A DNA stretch of 64,000 nucleotides from Candidatus Nomurabacteria bacterium (GCA_016699085.1 CP064958.1:409375-473374), one strand, 5' to 3'; positions 14,255 through 63,547 are shown, counted from the first letter of the stretch. A program made the numbers and translations. Notes: a model not told the origin generated them from the sequence alone.

Positions 14255-14340
14255 TAAAGAAATCAGAAAGATTTTTCTTGTTGCGGGACTCGCTTCGCTC
14301 AAACAAGTCCTCACTACAAAAAATCTTTCTGATTTCTTTA
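14255..14340. repeat. 86-bp palindromic element P2: ~25-bp inverted-repeat arms (TAAAGAAATCAGAAAGATTTTT...) around a GC-richer core
   Basis: left arm 14255-14281, right arm 14316-14340 (22 nt perfect); arm core resembles P1 (TCAGARRGATTTTT). Confidence 0.65.
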
Positions 14341-14362
14341 TTTGTTCTGGTATACTTTCTTC

Positions 14363-28442: not shown

Positions 28443-28478
28443 GCTTCAGTTAATAATTGACTGAAGCTTTTTCTATTG
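28442..28478 (+). terminator. hairpin agcttcagt-taataattg-actgaagct + tttttctatt
   Basis: 9-bp stem after stop at 28442. Confidence 0.55.
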
Positions 28479-28552
28479 TCCGTCCTCTTGGATTCGAACC
28501 AAGGACCCTCGAGGTATAAGCTCGATGCTCTAACCAACTGAGCTAAGGACGG
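28479..28552 (-). tRNA. tRNA-Ile with anticodon UAU (74 nt, no encoded CCA)
   Basis: cloverleaf: acceptor CCGTCCT/AGGACGG, D-arm GCTC-AGTTGGTTA-GAGC, anticodon arm TCGAG-CTTATAC-CTCGA, T-arm CTTGG-TTCGAAT-CCAAG. Confidence 0.8.
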
Positions 28553-38129: not shown

Positions 38130-38228
38130 GCGGAGGCGGTGAGATTCGCCGATACTGCGGCGGGTACTTTTCGACAAAATTCCTTAGAGTCTTTTGTAAC
38201 GAAAAATCTTTCGAATCTCACACACGAG
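38130..38228 (-). repeat. tRNA-Ser-3'-end-derived element E1 (~99 bp): copy of tRNA acceptor/T-arm 3' 20 nt + long hairpin
   Basis: minus strand ends CGAATCTCACCGCCTCCGC, matching the last 19 nt of tRNA-Ser at 38941 (the tRNA has T one base further 5'); shares blocks GGTACTTTTC / GAAAARTCTTTCGAAYCTCAC with E2. Confidence 0.6.
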
Positions 38229-38342
38229 TATATTAGTAACGTCACTGAATAGGCATGTAAACCAGGCTAGCTTTTGATATTGGGGAAGTTTTTGATTTAG
38301 GTGCATCTTTATTTTTTAAGATAGCACTTACCTGAGGTGATG

Positions 38343-38792
38343 TTACTGGGTGTTCATAAGTACCTGTTGAGCATGCGCAATAAGTTCTCGCATGTTCGTA
38401 GATTGCGTGTATCTTTCCAAAAATTCAGTAATAGGTATTACTTCTCTACTCAGGGCATCCTCGCTCGGAGTAAATTCGCCGAGTTTGAAATCATTTGTTG
38501 TGTAGACTAGCATAACCATATCTTTGTAGTTGCCTTGCGTGTTAGATTCCACAATTGCGAAAAGTCTCGGGTGAGAAAAAGTCGCCCCAGCTTCTTCTTG
38601 TACTTCACGAATGAGAGCTTGTTCAGGTGTCTCACCCTTTTCAATATGTCCACCCGGAATATCCCACCCCCTCTCATTTTCTATTGCAAGAATTTGGGAT
38701 CCATCAATCGCAACTAAAAATACTGCGCTCAGTAATTCCTCTTTTGGAAGGATTGTGTTCTCCTCTATATATGTAACAAAAAATTCTGGCAT
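38343..38792 (-). CDS. NUDIX hydrolase
   Basis: Nudix box GGHIEKGETPEQALIREVQEEAG. Confidence 0.7.
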   Translation of the reverse strand: MPEFFVTYIEENTILPKEELLSAVFLVAIDGSQILAIENERGWDIPGGHIEKGETPEQALIREVQEEAGATFSHPRLFAIVESNTQGNYKDMVMLVYTTNDFKLGEFTPSEDALSREVIPITEFLERYTQSTNMRELIAHAQQVLMNTQ

Positions 38793-38804
38793 ATTCTAAA
38801 AAAT

Positions 38805-38897
38805 GCGGAGGGGGTGAGATTCAGCTACCTACAGAGCCTGGTACTTTTCCACCTTGCTACGCTCGTACGGAAAAGTCTTTCGAACCTCACCCGCATG
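38805..38897 (-). repeat. tRNA-Ser-3'-end-derived element E2 (~93 bp); on the minus strand a long hairpin followed by AUUUUUU, 6 nt before the NUDIX start
   Basis: minus strand ends GAATCTCACCCCCTCCGC + ATTTTTT; internal conserved blocks as E1. Confidence 0.6.
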
Positions 38898-38940
38898 TGA
38901 AGCAGTTCACATGCTCGCCAGCGCTTTCGCGAAGCTCAAG

Positions 38941-39027
38941 CGGAGGCGGTGAGATTCGAACTCACGGACCCGGTAAAGGGTCGACAGTTTAGTAAACTGT
39001 TGATTTAAACCACTCATCCACGCCTCC
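38941..39027 (-). tRNA. class II (long variable arm) Ser-type tRNA with anticodon loop UUACUAA (apparent anticodon ACU)
   Basis: acceptor GGAGGCG/CGCCTCC, discriminator G, D-loop GAGTGGTT, T-arm GTGAG-TTCGAAT-CTCAC, variable arm GACCC..GGGTC; anticodon stem ACAGT/ACTGT. Confidence 0.7.
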
Positions 39028-39130
39028 AATATATTTTTTTTTAACAAGATTCTCCCTCGACTTTCTTTTCGTCGCCACTCAAAGAAGTCTGGTCACCAGC
39101 TCATCCATTTTTTCTGCTGAAAAAATATGA

Positions 39131-39213
39131 TTCCGCTGTTCGAATCTCACACGCAACGTGCGCAGGCACGTTGCTCGTCTCCGCAAAGTTTTTCTCTTCG
39201 CTAAAAGACTTTG
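39131..39213 (+). repeat. plus-oriented tRNA-Ser-3'-like fragment E3 (TTCGAATCTCACAC + 9-bp hairpin GCAACGTGC/GCACGTTGC + CTCGTCTCCGCAAAGT)
   Basis: forms a 14-bp inverted repeat with the real 3' end/flank of tRNA-Ser(GCU). Confidence 0.5.
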
Positions 39214-39298
39214 CGGAGACGGCGAGATTCGAACTCGCGAGGGCTTTCACCCTGCCTCCTTAGCAAGGAGGTACGTTAGACCACTCTGACACGTCTCC
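39214..39298 (-). tRNA. tRNA-Ser (anticodon GCU), 85 nt
   Basis: acceptor GGAGACG/CGTCTCC, anticodon arm CCTCC-TTGCTAA-GGAGG, long variable arm, T-arm GCGAG-TTCGAAT-CTCGC, discriminator G. Confidence 0.85.
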
Positions 39299-59320: not shown

Positions 59321-59486
59321 TTTTCTATATCTGGAATAAATAATTTTCTCATCTGCGGAACTCGCAATTTCTATGGAAATTGCTCAGACAAATCCTCGAC
59401 TCGAAAATTACTTATTCTAGACTTTACAATTTTTAGGTTGCAAAATATCCTAATTTGGCTAGAATGGGAAAGCATTACTAAAATCA

Positions 59487-59550
59487 GATCGCGGGTAGAA
59501 ATGGTTATCTCCAGTGAGACTACAGCGCGAATAACCAGAGGTTATGAGTA
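59487..59550 (+). repeat. degenerate partial copy of tRNA-fMet 5' half (pseudo-tRNA)
   Basis: TCGCGGGTAGAAATGGTTATCTC vs tRNA TCGCGGGGTAGAGAAGTGGTTATCTC. Confidence 0.5.
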
Positions 59551-59584
59551 TTGGTAAATGGTATAGTAAGTAATATAAAAATAT

Positions 59585-59656
59585 CGCGGGGTAGAGAAGT
59601 GGTTATCTCATCAGGCTCATAACCTGAAGACGGCCGTTCGAATCGGCCCCCCGCAA
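59585..59656 (+). tRNA. initiator tRNA-fMet (CAU)
   Basis: C1:A72 mismatch, anticodon loop CTCATAA, acceptor CGCGGGG/CCCCGCA, T-arm GGCCG-TTCGAAT-CGGCC; close to E. coli tRNA-fMet. Confidence 0.85.
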
Positions 59657-59796
59657 CACTCCCGCCACAGGCGGGCAAGTCGGCAAGTGACATGCCACAT
59701 CTCATGTCTTTGGGCCGTTGCTTTAGTTAGTGGTGAATATGACGGGTAGGCTTTGCCGAACAATGTCGTCACGATATACTTCGTGGCAATACCATC

Positions 59797-59826
59797 GACA
59801 AAAAGCAAAAATGTTTGCTTTTTGTC
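59797..59826 (+). other. 13-bp perfect hairpin GACAAAAAGCAAA-aatg-TTTGCTTTTTGTC within a hairpin-rich 230-bp tRNA spacer
   Basis: also hairpins 59661-59675, 59689-59708, 59836-59848, 59857-59872. Confidence 0.4.
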
Positions 59827-59886
59827 GGGGTAGCTTCCGCCAAAGGCGGACAAGCAGTCAATATGTTTTGACTTTTACCCGCCAAT

Positions 59887-59959
59887 GACGGAGTAGCTCA
59901 GTTGGTAGAGCACAGGACTCATAAGCCTGGGGTCGCGAGTTCGATCCTCGCCTCCGTCA
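59887..59959 (+). tRNA. tRNA-Met (CAU), elongator type (tRNA-Ile2/lysidine not excluded)
   Basis: acceptor GACGGAG/CTCCGTC, D-arm GCTC-AGTTGGTA-GAGC, anticodon loop CTCATAA, T-arm GCGAG-TTCGATC-CTCGC. Confidence 0.8.
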
Positions 59960-59974
59960 CAGTGTCCGTCATAT

Positions 59975-60020
59975 GGCGGGCATAAGCCCGGGGTCGCGAT
60001 TTCGATCCTCGCCTCCGTCA
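59975..60020 (+). repeat. partial tandem duplicate of tRNA-Met 3' half (anticodon-loop-like to 3' end)
   Basis: GGCGGGCATAAGCCCGGGGTCGCGATTTCGATCCTCGCCTCCGTCA vs tRNA ...ACTCATAAGCCTGGGGTCGCGAGTTCGATCCTCGCCTCCGTCA. Confidence 0.55.
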
Positions 60021-60045
60021 CAGTTACTTGAACATACAATGTTCA

Positions 60046-60135
60046 AGATGATATAAAAAGAGAATAAAATATTTGTGATTGTGGCTGTTTTGGCTAGACA
60101 AGCAAAGATGATATAAAAAGAGAATAAAATATTTG
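60046..60135 (+). repeat. 30-bp perfect direct repeat (AGATGATATAAAAAGAGAATAAAATATTTG) x2; the first copy followed by a degenerate tRNA 5' half, the second by tRNA-Asp
   Basis: copies at 60046-60075 and 60106-60135. Confidence 0.7.
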
Positions 60136-60208
60136 CGACCGTAGCTCAGCTGGTTAGAGCGCCCGCCTGTCACGTGGGAGGTCGCCGGTTCAAGTCCGGT
60201 CGGTCGCG
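60135..60208 (+). tRNA. tRNA-Asp (GUC)
   Basis: acceptor GCGACCG/CGGTCGC, anticodon loop CTGTCAC, T-arm GCCGG-TTCAAGT-CCGGT. Confidence 0.9.
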
Positions 60209-60239
60209 CAAGAATTTGGTATTAAAAAAATTTTAATCT

Positions 60240-61235
60240 ATGAAATATACATTTAAAGCATTGACCCTGTTTATTGGACTTACGGCTATACTGTTCGTAT
60301 TTTTCGTCTTTAATATCAATTCTAGTAATGGTAGTAGTACACTGGCTTTTGGTTCTGTATCTAATTTAAATATTGAGACACTAAATAACTGGCGTGCAGC
60401 TGGTGGTTTTACACGAGAACTTCAGTTAGGTAATCACGGAGGGGATGTAAGCTATTTACAAAAATATTTGCGTAGCATATATCCCAAAAGTATTTCACGC
60501 ATAGACGGTGTGTTCGGTATAGAAACCACAAATGCACTTGCTCTTTTTCAAAAAGACGCATCTTTGCCCATAACTGGCATGTTTGATAAAGAAACAAAAG
60601 AAACAATAAATCAATTATTCATAGGAGCCCTTTGCCCCAAGGGTGATGTGGCATATGCTGAGACGTTACTATTGCCGATAAGCAAAACACAAATGGTAGA
60701 TAGAGACTACGCACCATCTGATCTGGTCGTATTACCAGAACAAGTGGTGACGAATGGCATTATATGTCTGAGAACTGAAACAGCAGATGCTTATATTCGT
60801 ATGACCGATGCTGCACGTACTCAAGGGCTCGTTATACGTATTACATCTGGATTTCGGAATTTTGAAATACAAGAATACCTATTTAATTTCTATACTAAAC
60901 TACGAGGTATAGCATATGCGAGTAGAGTAAGTGCATTACCAGGGCATTCAGAACATCAATTAGGGACAACAGTAGATCTCACGGGAGCATCATTGCGCTA
61001 TGTATCAACGAGTCATTCATTTGCGCAGTCACCTGAAGGTAAATGGCTTGCAGCACATGCCGGTGAATATGGCTTTGTGCTAAGTTATCCTAGGGGCAAA
61101 GAATCAATAACAGGTTATACCTATGAGCCGTGGCACTATCGCTATGTAGGGATTGCACATGCAGAAGCACTCAAATCATCTGGTCAAACTCTAAAAGAAT
61201 ATTTGGAAAACCTAGAGACGACAGAACAACTTTAG
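60240..61235 (+). CDS. VanY/M15B-type D,D-carboxypeptidase with peptidoglycan-binding domain
   Basis: PG_binding_1-like GNHGGDVSYLQKYL...DGVFGIETTNAL; zinc ligands SGFRNFEIQ...HSEHQLGTTVDL. Confidence 0.65.
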   Translation: MKYTFKALTLFIGLTAILFVFFVFNINSSNGSSTLAFGSVSNLNIETLNNWRAAGGFTRELQLGNHGGDVSYLQKYLRSIYPKSISRIDGVFGIETTNALALFQKDASLPITGMFDKETKETINQLFIGALCPKGDVAYAETLLLPISKTQMVDRDYAPSDLVVLPEQVVTNGIICLRTETADAYIRMTDAARTQGLVIRITSGFRNFEIQEYLFNFYTKLRGIAYASRVSALPGHSEHQLGTTVDLTGASLRYVSTSHSFAQSPEGKWLAAHAGEYGFVLSYPRGKESITGYTYEPWHYRYVGIAHAEALKSSGQTLKEYLENLETTEQL

Positions 61236-61236
61236 T

Positions 61237-61722
61237 ATGTACCATCCAACAGTTGAAACAATAAAGACACTTTTGGATTCTAAAAGTATTGTGTATGAGG
61301 CATTTGAACATGCTCCTGTTCGGACCAGCGAGGAAGCAGCTAGTATCCGCCATGGGTACACAATCCATCAAGGAGCCAAGGCAATTATTGTGCGTGTAAA
61401 AATACCAAACGAAGCTAAAAAATTTATTATGCTCGTTGTGCCTGGGGACATGCGCTTTAGCGAAAGGCAACTGAAAGCAAATCTTGGTATTACAGAAGTT
61501 AGATTTGCAACAGAAGTCGAAGTAGGCGAGATAACGGATGGCATACTTCCAGGGGGAGTACCACCATTTGGTAATCTATTTAGCCTAGAAGTCTATGTGG
61601 ATCCAGAAGTTTTAAAAAATGAAAAAATTATTTTTAATGCAGGTGATCGATCGTATTCTATCGCAATGAAAGCGGCGGATTATGAGAAAATAGTTACCCC
61701 TACAATTGTCCAGATTACTTAA
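61237..61722 (+). CDS. ybaK: YbaK/ProX-family aminoacyl-tRNA deacylase
   Basis: GGVPPFG motif, size 161 aa. Confidence 0.65.
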   Translation: MYHPTVETIKTLLDSKSIVYEAFEHAPVRTSEEAASIRHGYTIHQGAKAIIVRVKIPNEAKKFIMLVVPGDMRFSERQLKANLGITEVRFATEVEVGEITDGILPGGVPPFGNLFSLEVYVDPEVLKNEKIIFNAGDRSYSIAMKAADYEKIVTPTIVQIT

Positions 61723-61810
61723 GCTTATTTGCAAAAAAGTAGAAAATCTCTATAGTTGAAGAGTATTTTAAGGTTATTTTCTAATAACCAAAAAAAACGA
61801 TAGCTTGCAT

Positions 61811-61885
61811 GCCGTTGTAGCTGTTTTGGTAGATCTAAAAGTATATATGCTGCCGTAGCTGTTTTGGTAGATCTAAAAGTATATA
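61811..61885 (+). repeat. two tandem ~37-bp repeats, each a degenerate tRNA-Thr 5' end + TAAAAGTATATA
   Basis: GCCGTTGTAGCTGTTTTGGTAGATC vs tRNA GCCGTTGTAGCTCAGTTGGTAGAGC. Confidence 0.65.
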
Positions 61886-61886
61886 A

Positions 61887-61959
61887 GCCGTTGTAGCTCA
61901 GTTGGTAGAGCACGTTCTTGGTAAGAACGAGGTCTCCGGTTCAATCCCGGACAACGGCT
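61887..61959 (+). tRNA. tRNA-Thr (GGU)
   Basis: acceptor GCCGTTG/CAACGGC, anticodon loop TTGGTAA, T-arm TCCGG-TTCAATC-CCGGA. Confidence 0.9.
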
Positions 61960-62080
61960 CATAAAAAACTCTCATTGACTCAAGTCATAGGTGAGTATAG
62001 ACTAATGCAAACCTTTGATAAATAAGGTACTGGCGCTCCTACAAGAGTGTTTTTTAATGTAACCTTTATAAAATAGAAAA

Positions 62081-63547
62081 ATGAATAGACTTAAGAAGAT
62101 TACCTCAAATGGATTAACCTATGATGATGTTCTCATCCTACCTGGTTATTCAGAAGTATTGCCTCGACAAGTGAATACGAGTACAAATCTTACTAAAAAC
62201 ATTCGACTCAACGTTCCGGTGCTTTCAGCGGCCATGGATACCGTCACCGATTGGCAAATGGCTATTGCCATGGCAAGTCAGGGTGGCCTAGGTATTCTGC
62301 ATAAAAATATGTCTATTGAAAGGCAGGCGGAGGCAGTGCGAAGGGTGAAACGAAGTGAAAGTGGTCTCATTATTGATCCGACCACACTTCATCCGGAAGA
62401 TACTATTGGTCAGGCACTGCAGCTCATGAAGGAATTCAAGATCGGTGGCATTCCCATTGTAGACAATGAAAAGAAATTGGTAGGTATCCTTACCAACAGG
62501 GATCTCAGGTTTGAAAAGAATATGAAGCGGAAAATTTTAGAAGTGATGACAAAGGACAGGTTAGTTACCGCACCTGAAGGTACAGATCTGAAAAATGCAG
62601 AAGAAATTCTGCAGGACTATAAGGTTGAGAAACTTCCCGTTGTAGACAAGAAAGGCAAATTAAAAGGTCTTATAACTTATCGGGATATTTTGAAATTAAA
62701 AAGTCATCCAAATGCGTGTAAAGACACCTTTGGACGACTTCTGGTAGGCGCAGCTGTTGGAGTGACGACAGATATATTGGATCGTATAGAAGCTCTTGTT
62801 CACAATGGGGTAGATGTTATTTGTATTGATACTGCGCATGGTCACTCTCATGGGGTACTAGAGTCAGTAAAAAATGTGAAGAAAAAATTCAAACATCTTG
62901 AGGTAATTGCCGGTAATGTAGCGACCAGTGAAGGTGCAGCAGCACTTGCAGAAGCTGGAGCTGATGCTGTAAAAGTTGGCGTAGGTCCAGGATCAATATG
63001 TACTACTCGAATTGTTACAGGGGTAGGCGTACCACAACTTACAGCTGTAATGGAAGCAGCAAGAGGATTGAAGAAATATAATATTCCACTCATTGCAGAC
63101 GGCGGTATTCGATACACTGGTGATATTGTCAAAGCAATCGTAGCCGGTGCTGATGCGGTTATGGCAGGTTCACTTTTTGCAGGACTTGAAGAATCTCCAG
63201 GTGAGACAATTATTTTCGAGGGTCGCAAATTTAAGTCATACAGAGGTATGGGTTCGATCGAAGCTATGCAGGACGGATCCAAAGATCGTTACTTTCAGGA
63301 TGCAGAAGATGACATAAAGAAACTGACTCCTGAAGGAATAGTTGGCCGTGTTCCATATAAAGGGACACTCGCTGAAGTAATGGTGCAGTGTATTGGTGGA
63401 TTACAAGCAGGTATGGGCTATACTGGCTCTCCAGATATTCCAACACTAAAGCAAGCACGATTTGTTCAAATTTCAACTGCGGGTATTCGTGAAAGCCATG
63501 TGCATGATGTGGCAATCACGAATGAAGCACCAAATTACAGTAAATAA
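62081..63547 (+). CDS. guaB: inosine-5'-monophosphate dehydrogenase
   Basis: two CBS domains, catalytic loop [11 protein letters not shown]. Confidence 0.9.

Follow-up and report, generated by a model that had tools for sequence, protein, structure and literature searches.

Partial tRNA copies in a Candidatus Nomurabacteria genome as probable relics of local tRNA gene turnover

tRNA genes carry partial copies of themselves

We analysed a stretch of 64,000 nucleotides (nt) from the genome of Candidatus Nomurabacteria bacterium (GCA_016699085.1, CP064958.1:409375-473374), a member of the candidate-phylum bacteria (Patescibacteria). This whole stretch, of ~40% G+C, is called the window below, and positions are counted from its first letter. 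All four transfer RNA (tRNA) genes of a cluster at 59.5-62.0 kb were found to carry a partial copy of themselves, with similarities well above those of shuffled controls, which confirmed an earlier reading made from the sequence alone (the sequence-only reading). The phenomenon reached beyond the cluster, to a pair of tRNA-Ser genes at 38.1-39.3 kb and to a tRNA-Thr(CGT) gene past the window end. The partial copies are probably relics of local, homology-driven turnover of tRNA genes, involving duplication, gene conversion, deletion and replacement. They are old, fixed features common to the window and its two close relatives and predate the species split (~30% divergence at four-fold degenerate sites), and are not a recent stutter.

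In such turnover, a tRNA gene with a little flanking sequence would be duplicated head to tail, by what we infer to be unequal crossing-over, replication slippage or template switching, aided by the near-universal D-arm segment GTAGCTCAGTTGGTAGAGC. The copies would then exchange sequence by gene conversion, vary in number, undergo internal or terminal deletions, or be interrupted by inserted DNA, and a single working gene per anticodon would persist beside the stumps of the others. As in tandem arrays, gene-plus-flank units were arranged head to tail (periods of 38 at tRNA-Thr, 60 at tRNA-Asp and 61 at tRNA-Met), and both polymorphism and patches of homogenisation were observed. Because the 5' stumps are situated downstream of the promoter and upstream of the gene that survived, they would become part of the 5' leader (tRNA-fMet, tRNA-Thr) or of the promoter itself (tRNA-Asp), a position that may explain their retention and high conservation.

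The tRNA genes were called by ARAGORN and Rfam, which were concordant for the four genes at 59585-61960. BLAST searches of all tRNAs against 73.5 kb of the genome returned significant fragments solely beside tRNAs of the same kind. A flank score of at least 28 was reached by 4 of 7 tRNAs in the window versus 3 of 56 in unrelated loci, a measure by which the Asp repeat is not counted. Rfam 15, run over the whole window at the gathering threshold, returned tRNAs and the transfer-messenger RNA only, and at E values up to 5 over 59.3-62.1 kb and 38.6-39.5 kb it gave no credible match in the leaders, the spacers or the structured elements of the tRNA-Ser locus described below. The tRNA-Ile(TAT) gene (28478-28552, minus strand) was the sole tRNA gene of the window without a nearby partial copy. 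The features are collected in Table 1.

Comparisons were made with two metagenome contigs of the same strain from the Joint Genome Institute (JGI), L001 and L206, the latter showing 10 differences from the window in 11,920 nt, and with relatives at the species level, namely L004 (the same contig as L011, GCA_964563615.1), its population variants L005, L006 and L207, and L090 (JACCDG010647045.1). VanY-anchored scans of genome and metagenome collections yielded L011 and L090 as the only two further close relatives; the other matches were at most 46% identical over most of the protein, and the gene order was not shared. At four-fold degenerate sites the window is ~70% identical to L004 or L090 and these two are ~89% identical to each other, so the window is the outgroup of the trio. 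Across these genomes with 70% four-fold identity, the 5' and 3' relics are 88-100% identical. In three more distant loci (L210, L212 and L213, with 50-58% identity in a neighbouring protein of 226 amino acids), the upstream order of pilin-like genes, LigA, GatC, GatA and the 226-amino-acid protein is kept, and the tRNA cluster and everything downstream of it are absent at this position. The cluster therefore marks a rearrangement boundary specific to the lineage of the window, and the duplications are not datable from these loci.

Chance matches in AT-rich DNA, or artefacts of metagenome assembly, are extremely improbable as the source of the copies. The base composition of the window, the tendency of metagenome assemblies to mis-join repeats and four clustered strain differences at tRNA-Thr(GGT), which could reflect such an error, speak for them; against this stand z-scores of 7-26 relative to shuffled sequences and a Tandem Repeats Finder score of 149, in line with the claim of the sequence-only reading that the copies were not due to chance. 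The same repeat structures were also carried by independent assemblies that differ in sample and origin (NCBI, three JGI samples and GenBank JACCDG), and the repeats are therefore not an assembly artefact.

Table 1 Features of the tRNA cluster and of the tRNA-Ser locus (window coordinates unless a contig is named).
Feature	Position	Strand	Basis and remarks
Sigma-70-like promoter of the fMet-Met unit, TTGCAA-16-TAGAAT	59438-59465	+	Consensus scan
Degenerate copy of tRNA-fMet positions 1-25	59490-59511	+	Local alignment; part of the ~110-nt 5' leader
Rest of the fMet leader	59512-59584	+	AATAACC/GGTTATGAG (anticodon-loop-like sequence and its complement)
tRNA-fMet (CAT)	59585-59657	+	ARAGORN, Rfam
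Conserved fMet-Met spacer	59658-59823	+	Opens with hairpin CCGCCACAGGCGG (59662-59674); 87% identical to relatives
12-nt 5' stump GTCGGGGTAGCT of a second tRNA-Met (Met-A)	59824-59835	+	Alignment with L004 and L090; BLAST match
Sequence replacing the Met-A body	59836-59886	+	Copy of the post-fMet hairpin (59837-59854), then CGCCAAT flank of Met-B
tRNA-Met (CAT), type B	59887-59960	+	Acceptor GACGGAG...CTCCGTC; ARAGORN, Rfam
Met-B', tandem copy of Met-B without positions 7-33	59961-60024	+	Vestigial flank and GGCGGG, then 3' half from CATAAGCC to the end
Asp repeat copy 1	60045-60104	+	AT-rich promoter-like 31 nt, then pseudo 5' half (60075-60099)
Asp repeat copy 2 (60105-60134) adjoining tRNA-Asp (60135-60209)	60105-60209	+	Repeat search; ARAGORN, Rfam
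Sigma-70-like promoter of tRNA-Thr, TTGCAA-16-TATAGT	61729-61756	+	Consensus scan; conserved in relatives
Pair of 38-bp units, each combining a mutated 5' end of tRNA-Thr with TCTAAAAGTATATAA	61811-61886	+	Tandem Repeats Finder
tRNA-Thr (GGT)	61887-61960	+	ARAGORN, Rfam
tRNA-Ser pair region	38130-39298	-	tRNA-Ser 3' end (T-loop onwards) four times in direct order: 39213, 38940, 38805, 38130
E elements, 95-185 nt	Window 38130-39212; L004 4004-4172; L090 4866-4996 and 5194-5358	- (window)	

Head-to-tail units upstream of tRNA-Thr(GGT) and tRNA-Asp

Upstream of tRNA-Thr(GGT), tandem units with mutated 5' ends of the gene, described as two units of ~37 bp by the sequence-only reading, were recovered by Tandem Repeats Finder over 61811-61909 with a period of 38 and 2.6 copies. 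They are situated in the predicted transcribed leader, downstream of the TTGCAA-16-TATAGT promoter. The unit GTAGCTGTTTTGGTAGATCTAAAAGTATATAA is invariant between genomes, and a 33-nt core is invariant in all five units of the three genomes, with variation in the acceptor-like part. Two units are present in the window, one in L004 and two in L090, so the copy-number variation anticipated among sister genomes was indeed seen. In addition, 4 of the 10 differences between the window and L206 fall within 7 nt (61848-61854) at the start of unit 2, where the window reads TGCTGCCG and L206 reads AGCCGTTG, the latter form being that of unit 1 and of the gene. The copy number and the clustered strain differences appear to be signatures of unequal exchange and gene conversion.

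The direct repeat at tRNA-Asp (60045-60098 and 60105-60158) has a 60-bp period and extends over 54 nt with 83% identity. Its first 31 nt are identical, as expected from the perfect 30-bp repeat reported earlier, with a degenerate tRNA 5' half after copy 1. This pseudo-Asp 5' half was found in the window (GTGATTGTGGCTGTTTTGGCTAGAC), in L090 (GCGATTGTAGCTGTTTTGGCTAGGC) and in L004 (GCGATTGTAGTTGTTTTGGTTAGGC), with 88-89% identity. The perfect 31-nt repeat was observed in the window only; in the relatives, 9 nt are inserted in copy 2 and the first 16 nt of copy 1 are missing, a comparison that points to local homogenisation. The slipped duplication of promoter and tRNA 5' part proposed by the sequence-only reading describes the Thr and Asp copies, which are head-to-tail repeats of an upstream AT-rich segment with the first ~25 nt of the tRNA, and does not describe Met-B', the Met-A stump or tRNA-Thr(CGT) (below).

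The Asp and Thr relics share derived characters. Exactly three occurrences of the sequence GCTGTTTTGG were found in the 64 kb (60084, 61820 and 61858), all within these relics, in agreement with the claim that one motif recurs upstream of two different tRNAs. No further occurrence upstream of other tRNAs was found by motif search or BLAST in the 73.5 kb examined, and the motif is present at 2 of 9 tRNA loci. The pseudo-Asp core matches the pseudo-Thr unit at 19-20 of 27 positions and the real tRNA-Asp at 15-16 of 27. A search of viral contigs with GTAGCTGTTTTGGNTAG gave 35 scattered single matches, which were judged likely to be chance for 16 specified bases and were set aside.

A promoter-like pair overlaps the Asp relic: TTGGCT (60090-60095) lies in the pseudo-Asp D-loop, 16 nt upstream of TATAAA (60112-60117). 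In L004 and L090, the sole TATAAA upstream of tRNA-Asp likewise has its -35 position (TTGGTT or TTGGCT, 16-nt spacer) in the pseudo D-loop. This pair was read by eye from the sequence; the sigma-70 scan makes no call here, the sixth base being A.

The tRNA-fMet leader and the possibility of a selected module

The promoter of the fMet-Met unit is identical at 37 of 37 positions in L004 and L090, and the ~110-nt leader of tRNA-fMet contains a degenerate copy of the start of the gene (22 matches with three 1-nt gaps; score 29 versus a shuffled mean of 14.4, standard deviation 2.0, z 7.4). The sequence-only reading had extended this copy over 59487-59550; it was confirmed for 59490-59511, and the remainder to 59550 showed weak tRNA similarity only. 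The copy is present in the window, L004 and L090, and only in L004 is it identical to the real gene (27 of 27). A shorter, diverged form is common to the window (the outgroup) and L090; because L004 and L090 are sisters, the best reading of the L004 copy is that it was recently converted by the gene, which lies 95 nt downstream. The rest of the leader is 96-97% identical to the relatives versus 70% at four-fold sites. A second promoter-like pair, TTGGTA-17-TATAAA, can be read from the sequence there, ending 5 nt upstream of the tRNA. In the minimum-free-energy fold of leader and tRNA, the leader forms two hairpins of its own and the cloverleaf remains intact (z -2.1 over 186 nt). A GC-rich hairpin, CCGCCA(C/A)AGGCGG(G/A)CAAG, was seen twice, at 59662-59679 after tRNA-fMet and at 59837-59854 after the Met-A stump, against a chance expectation of 0.04.

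These leaders raise a different explanation, in which the 5' pseudo-halves would be a selected tRNA-like leader or promoter module on the core TTGTAGCTGTTTTGG(C)TAG, serving either as an operator or -35 element or, in the form of a leader RNA, to modulate how the downstream tRNA is transcribed or processed, with tRNA ancestry incidental. The closeness of the pseudo-Asp core to the pseudo-Thr unit, the invariant Thr core, the -35 position inside the pseudo D-loop of both relatives, and the conserved fMet leader with its own fold all agree with it, as does the disrupted D-stem of the pseudo-units, by which cloverleaf folding, as read from the sequence, should face no competition. Against it, the motif was detected at 2 of 9 tRNA loci and nowhere else in 73.5 kb, no Rfam match was obtained, the number of Thr units is not fixed, and the difficulties of promoter geometry, folding and neighbouring conservation given in the next paragraph apply equally. 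A selected module is thus a possible, if doubtful, source of the pseudo-halves, and any functional tRNA-like module is putative. The promoter or leader module shared among tRNAs that the sequence-only reading had offered as an option is plausible for Asp, given TTGGCT-16-TATAAA, and is not evident for Thr. Co-option of the stumps as promoter or leader is accordingly plausible for Asp and fMet and would be putative for the stumps overall.

Several observations weigh against local turnover of tRNA genes as the origin of the copies, or against a role of the stumps in leaders and promoters. The pseudo-Asp and pseudo-Thr D-loops carry the same CAG(C/T)-to-GTTT change, which neutral decay does not explain; since it is unlikely to have arisen independently, it calls either for conversion of one relic by the other or for selection on the motif. 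Non-repeat intergenic DNA near the tRNAs is equally conserved, for instance 96% identity to L004 over 59321-59437, and relic conservation is therefore not specific evidence of function. No sigma-70 spacing in the promoter scan fits the Thr units, and the Thr and Asp leaders fold no better than shuffled sequences (z -0.6 to +0.3). Some 3' copies (of tRNA-Ser, and of tRNA-Asp and tRNA-Met in the relatives) resemble site-specific insertion more than homologous duplication. Finally, the comparison covers three closely related genomes, none of which has two intact tandem Thr or Asp genes. A structured tRNA-mimic leader had been entertained for Thr and Asp and was dropped, as the folds were not significant.

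Reciprocal loss of tandem tRNA-Met genes

At the tRNA-Met locus, tandem genes were reciprocally lost: the relatives kept one type, A, and the window kept another, B. The intact tRNA-Met of L004 and L090 is of type A (GTCGGGG...CCCGACA), and of this gene the window retains a 12-nt 5' stump, which adds to the copies listed by the sequence-only reading. The stump is followed by 44 nt including a copy of the post-fMet hairpin (16 of 18 positions match; 0 of 2000 shuffles reach the score) and then by the intact type-B gene. Positions 8-48 are the same in the two types, and the differences lie in the acceptor and T stems, on both strands of each.

Downstream of Met-B, the copy of the tRNA-Met 3' half that had been placed at 59975-60020 was confirmed at 59981-60021, corresponding to tRNA positions 34-74 (39 of 41 matching, z 26), and the repeat period of Met-B and Met-B' is 61. 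A relic lies downstream of the type-A gene in L004, CGCCAATGACGGA|CATAAACC. Its left part is identical at 13 of 13 positions to the Met-B flank and first 6 nt of the gene in the window (0 of 2000 shuffles), and the whole relic aligns with the spacer and the start of the Met 3' half. The 3' half is therefore a complete tandem copy, Met-B', whose positions 7-33 were lost before the lineages split, rather than the slipped partial duplication previously assumed. In the simplest history, an ancestral array A-B-B' would have lost B in L004 and L090, for example by exchange between the repeated flanks, and in the window the body of A would have been lost, with B, B' and the 12-nt A stump kept.

A split tRNA-Thr(CGT) gene and its replacement

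A further case was found ~1 kb past the window end, at a tRNA-Thr(CGT) site covered by the same-strain contigs (L001 7788-7990 and L206 12944-13146, equivalent to ~65.0-65.2 kb of the window). L004 and L207 have one intact native tRNA-Thr(CGT) (GCCACCC...). In the genome under study, the native gene is split in the D-loop, after GTTGGTA, by a 130-nt insert consisting of 33 nt, a new tRNA and 23 nt: CCTGCCCGAATGACT...TATAATAA, a complete and different tRNA-Thr(CGT) (GCCGATG...), and CAAGTAGTCATTCAGTCGGGCGG. The insert ends are inverted repeats with ~14 matched bases, of which no other copy was found in the window or in any locus compared. ARAGORN miscalls the displaced 3' part of the native gene as a second tRNA. 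In its T-arm and acceptor, the new tRNA-Thr(CGT) agrees at 29 of 29 positions with an attP-like tRNA fragment carried by a GC-rich phage contig, which marks it as a type that other bacteria use and suggests a horizontal origin. The split gene is a recent, clean example of how a 5' stump originates, and together with the Met-A stump it shows that several fragments stem from disruption or replacement of a resident gene.

A reading of the fragments as parts of split tRNAs was rejected: each of them is accompanied by an intact gene with the same anticodon, and complementary arms occur in the Thr(CGT) insert only.

Attachment-site scars and elements at the tRNA-Ser genes

Integrases recombine in the anticodon loop or T-loop of tRNA genes and leave an intact gene and a displaced 3' fragment, which later deletion of the element joins; the fragments could be such attachment-site scars. 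A preprint documents partial tRNA genes left by integrated elements as a source of tRNA fragments (bioRxiv 10.1101/2022.07.05.498093). In L006, a variant of L004 that came from a different sample, unrelated DNA with small open reading frames (ORFs) takes the place of tRNA-Met upstream of CTCATAAGCC, and this junction is the start point of the Met 3' half of the window. The DNA looks like an integrated element, inside which the contig ends, and the junction at the anticodon loop means that integrative elements do use tRNA-Met. The attP-like tRNA-Thr(CGT) 3' fragment of the phage contig also agrees with scars, as do the 3' copies of tRNA-Ser, of tRNA-Asp in the relatives and of tRNA-Met in L090, all of which run from the T-loop to the tRNA 3' end.

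As an account of the cluster, scars are nonetheless unlikely, given that three of the four relics are 5' parts (fMet, Asp and Thr), as is the Met-A stump. 5' parts are not normally duplicated by integration at tRNA genes. Ahead of the Met 3' half stands a vestige of the gene's own 5' flank and first 6 nt rather than foreign DNA, only 20 nt of tRNA-derived sequence separate this half from the intact gene, and the inserts between direct repeats are just 110-170 nt long. No integrase domain was found by Pfam in the 17 ORFs scanned (14 in the window and 3 in the L006 element). Attachment-site scars fit the 3'-end copies outside the cluster better. Within the L006 DNA (positions 1-1060), joined to tRNA-Met exactly at the anticodon loop, one ORF gave a weak, sub-threshold bAvd-like match (E 0.005).

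At the tRNA-Ser locus, the copies of the tRNA 3' end are separated by structured elements, termed E elements, and by a NUDIX gene. The order is tRNA-Ser(GCT), E1 (185 nt), tRNA-Ser(ACT), E2 (118 nt, ending GAATCTCACCCCCTCCGCA), the NUDIX gene and E5 (ending in an exact GAATCTCACCGCCTCCGCA), so that the copies delimit two cassettes, one of which contains the NUDIX gene; no recombinase was seen with the E elements. E3 (~165 nt) follows tRNA-Asp in the relatives and is absent from the window, and E4 follows tRNA-Met in L090. The elements end in a direct copy of the T-loop-to-3'-end of their own tRNA, with the exception of E1, which adjoins the complete tRNA-Ser(ACT). A hairpin whose CTGC loop is invariant is common to E1-E3 and absent from E4 and E5; its nine pairs all covary, with 100% of cells paired (0 of 500 shuffles). 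Hairpins with a CTGC loop on a stem of at least 7 bp were found at E sites only, with a chance expectation of 0.03. In E1-E3 there is also an inverted copy of the T-loop and T-stem of the element's own tRNA, perfect over 12-13 nt and not seen in E4, and E1-E4 have a second hairpin with the loop GAGCGnnGCGA. In a GuaA-based search for orthologs of the Ser locus, the best matches were 61% identical, and the two best loci (P0121 and P0123) had no nearby tRNAs. For GuaA, as for the 226-amino-acid protein beside the cluster, the closest proteins belonged to Patescibacteria.

The E elements may serve small cassettes as recombination sites of an att-like or attC-like kind, or they may be tRNA duplicates that have been remodelled in the extreme. 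A broader proposal is that the lineage harbours small non-autonomous elements that target tRNA genes, comprising the E family, which would stack as cassettes behind tRNA-Ser, tRNA-Asp and tRNA-Met, and the 130-nt Thr(CGT) cassette, which would have replaced the native gene. The stuttered copies would then be the footprint of a new kind of system for inserting into tRNA genes and replacing them, which might act on folded single-stranded DNA in the manner of integron attC sites. We consider this proposal quite unlikely. If the E elements are mobile, they would represent a new kind of tRNA-targeted element, and they and the tRNA-bearing Thr(CGT) insert are the leads most worth following.

Two further observations concern these sequences. 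The tRNA-Ser(ACT) gene (38940-39027, minus strand), which scores 56 bits with the Rfam tRNA model, has A34, an unusual base there for serine tRNAs of bacteria, and differs greatly in sequence from the adjacent tRNA-Ser(GCT). A perfect inverted repeat of ~25 bp, AAATAAAGAAATCAGAAAGATTTTT ... AAAAATCTTTCTGATTTCTTTAT, lies in intergenic DNA at 14265-14345 (minus strand), and its GC-richer core contains GAGCGAAGCGAG, which resembles the E loop motif.

Relation to known systems

As the genomes of candidate-phylum bacteria are minimal and usually hold a single gene for each tRNA, losing or disrupting one of these genes should be costly. Local turnover of tRNA genes would mean that such genomes still turn these genes over rapidly, with the debris kept in the leaders and promoters of the survivors. 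The identical central segments of Met-A and Met-B with different stems, their reciprocal loss, the copy-number polymorphism and the conversion patches resemble tRNA arrays that evolve by birth and death, with the difference that the present genome is reduced (~0.8 Mb), its tRNAs are otherwise single-copy, and the relics are retained and conserved instead of being purged.

In Escherichia coli tyrT, a tRNA-Tyr gene is followed by a 178-bp unit repeated about three times, each with the last 19 nt of the tRNA. As in our case, tandem repeats with partial tRNA copies stand beside a tRNA gene, the tyrT repeats being co-transcribed and arising by unequal recombination; here, however, the copies are mostly 5' parts located upstream in the leader, the units are 38-60 bp long, and nearly every tRNA examined is affected rather than a single locus. 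Partial tRNAs at integration sites are alike in the direct 3' fragment beside an intact gene, which begins at the anticodon loop for Met and at the T-loop for Ser and, in the relatives, for Asp and Met, and in the exact insertion point of the L006 element. They are unlike in that mostly 5' parts were found here, together with a Met 5' vestige and 20-170 nt of intervening DNA without a recombinase, and in that the fragments are fixed across species. With the split and intron-containing tRNAs of archaea (Nanoarchaeum-type), the Thr(CGT) gene shares the cut in the D-loop, and the complementary arms of the insert (~14 bp) could hold the transcript halves together. In contrast, the insert contains an intact replacement gene, no bulge-helix-bulge motif was seen, and the other fragments have no partner half. 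The relics are thus related to the tyrT repeats and to integration-site fragments; their notable aspects are the density of tRNA relics in a minimal genome and the replacement of a tRNA gene in place.

Stumps and internally deleted copies risk being miscalled as tRNAs in annotation, as happened with the second tRNA-Thr(CGT) of ARAGORN. The locus also bears on how episymbionts gain components of translation from other organisms.

Neighbouring genes

The IMP dehydrogenase gene at 62081-63547 encodes a protein 86% identical to proteins of Chitinophagales (Bacteroidota), with closer matches only in the two sister genomes. The contigs that carry these Chitinophagales IMP dehydrogenases also carry Por-secretion-tail genes, and this degree of identity suggests a recent horizontal transfer from Bacteroidota into this lineage of Patescibacteria. 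The gene and the downstream adenylosuccinate synthase gene form a pair flanked by tRNA-Thr(GGT) and tRNA-Thr(CGT).

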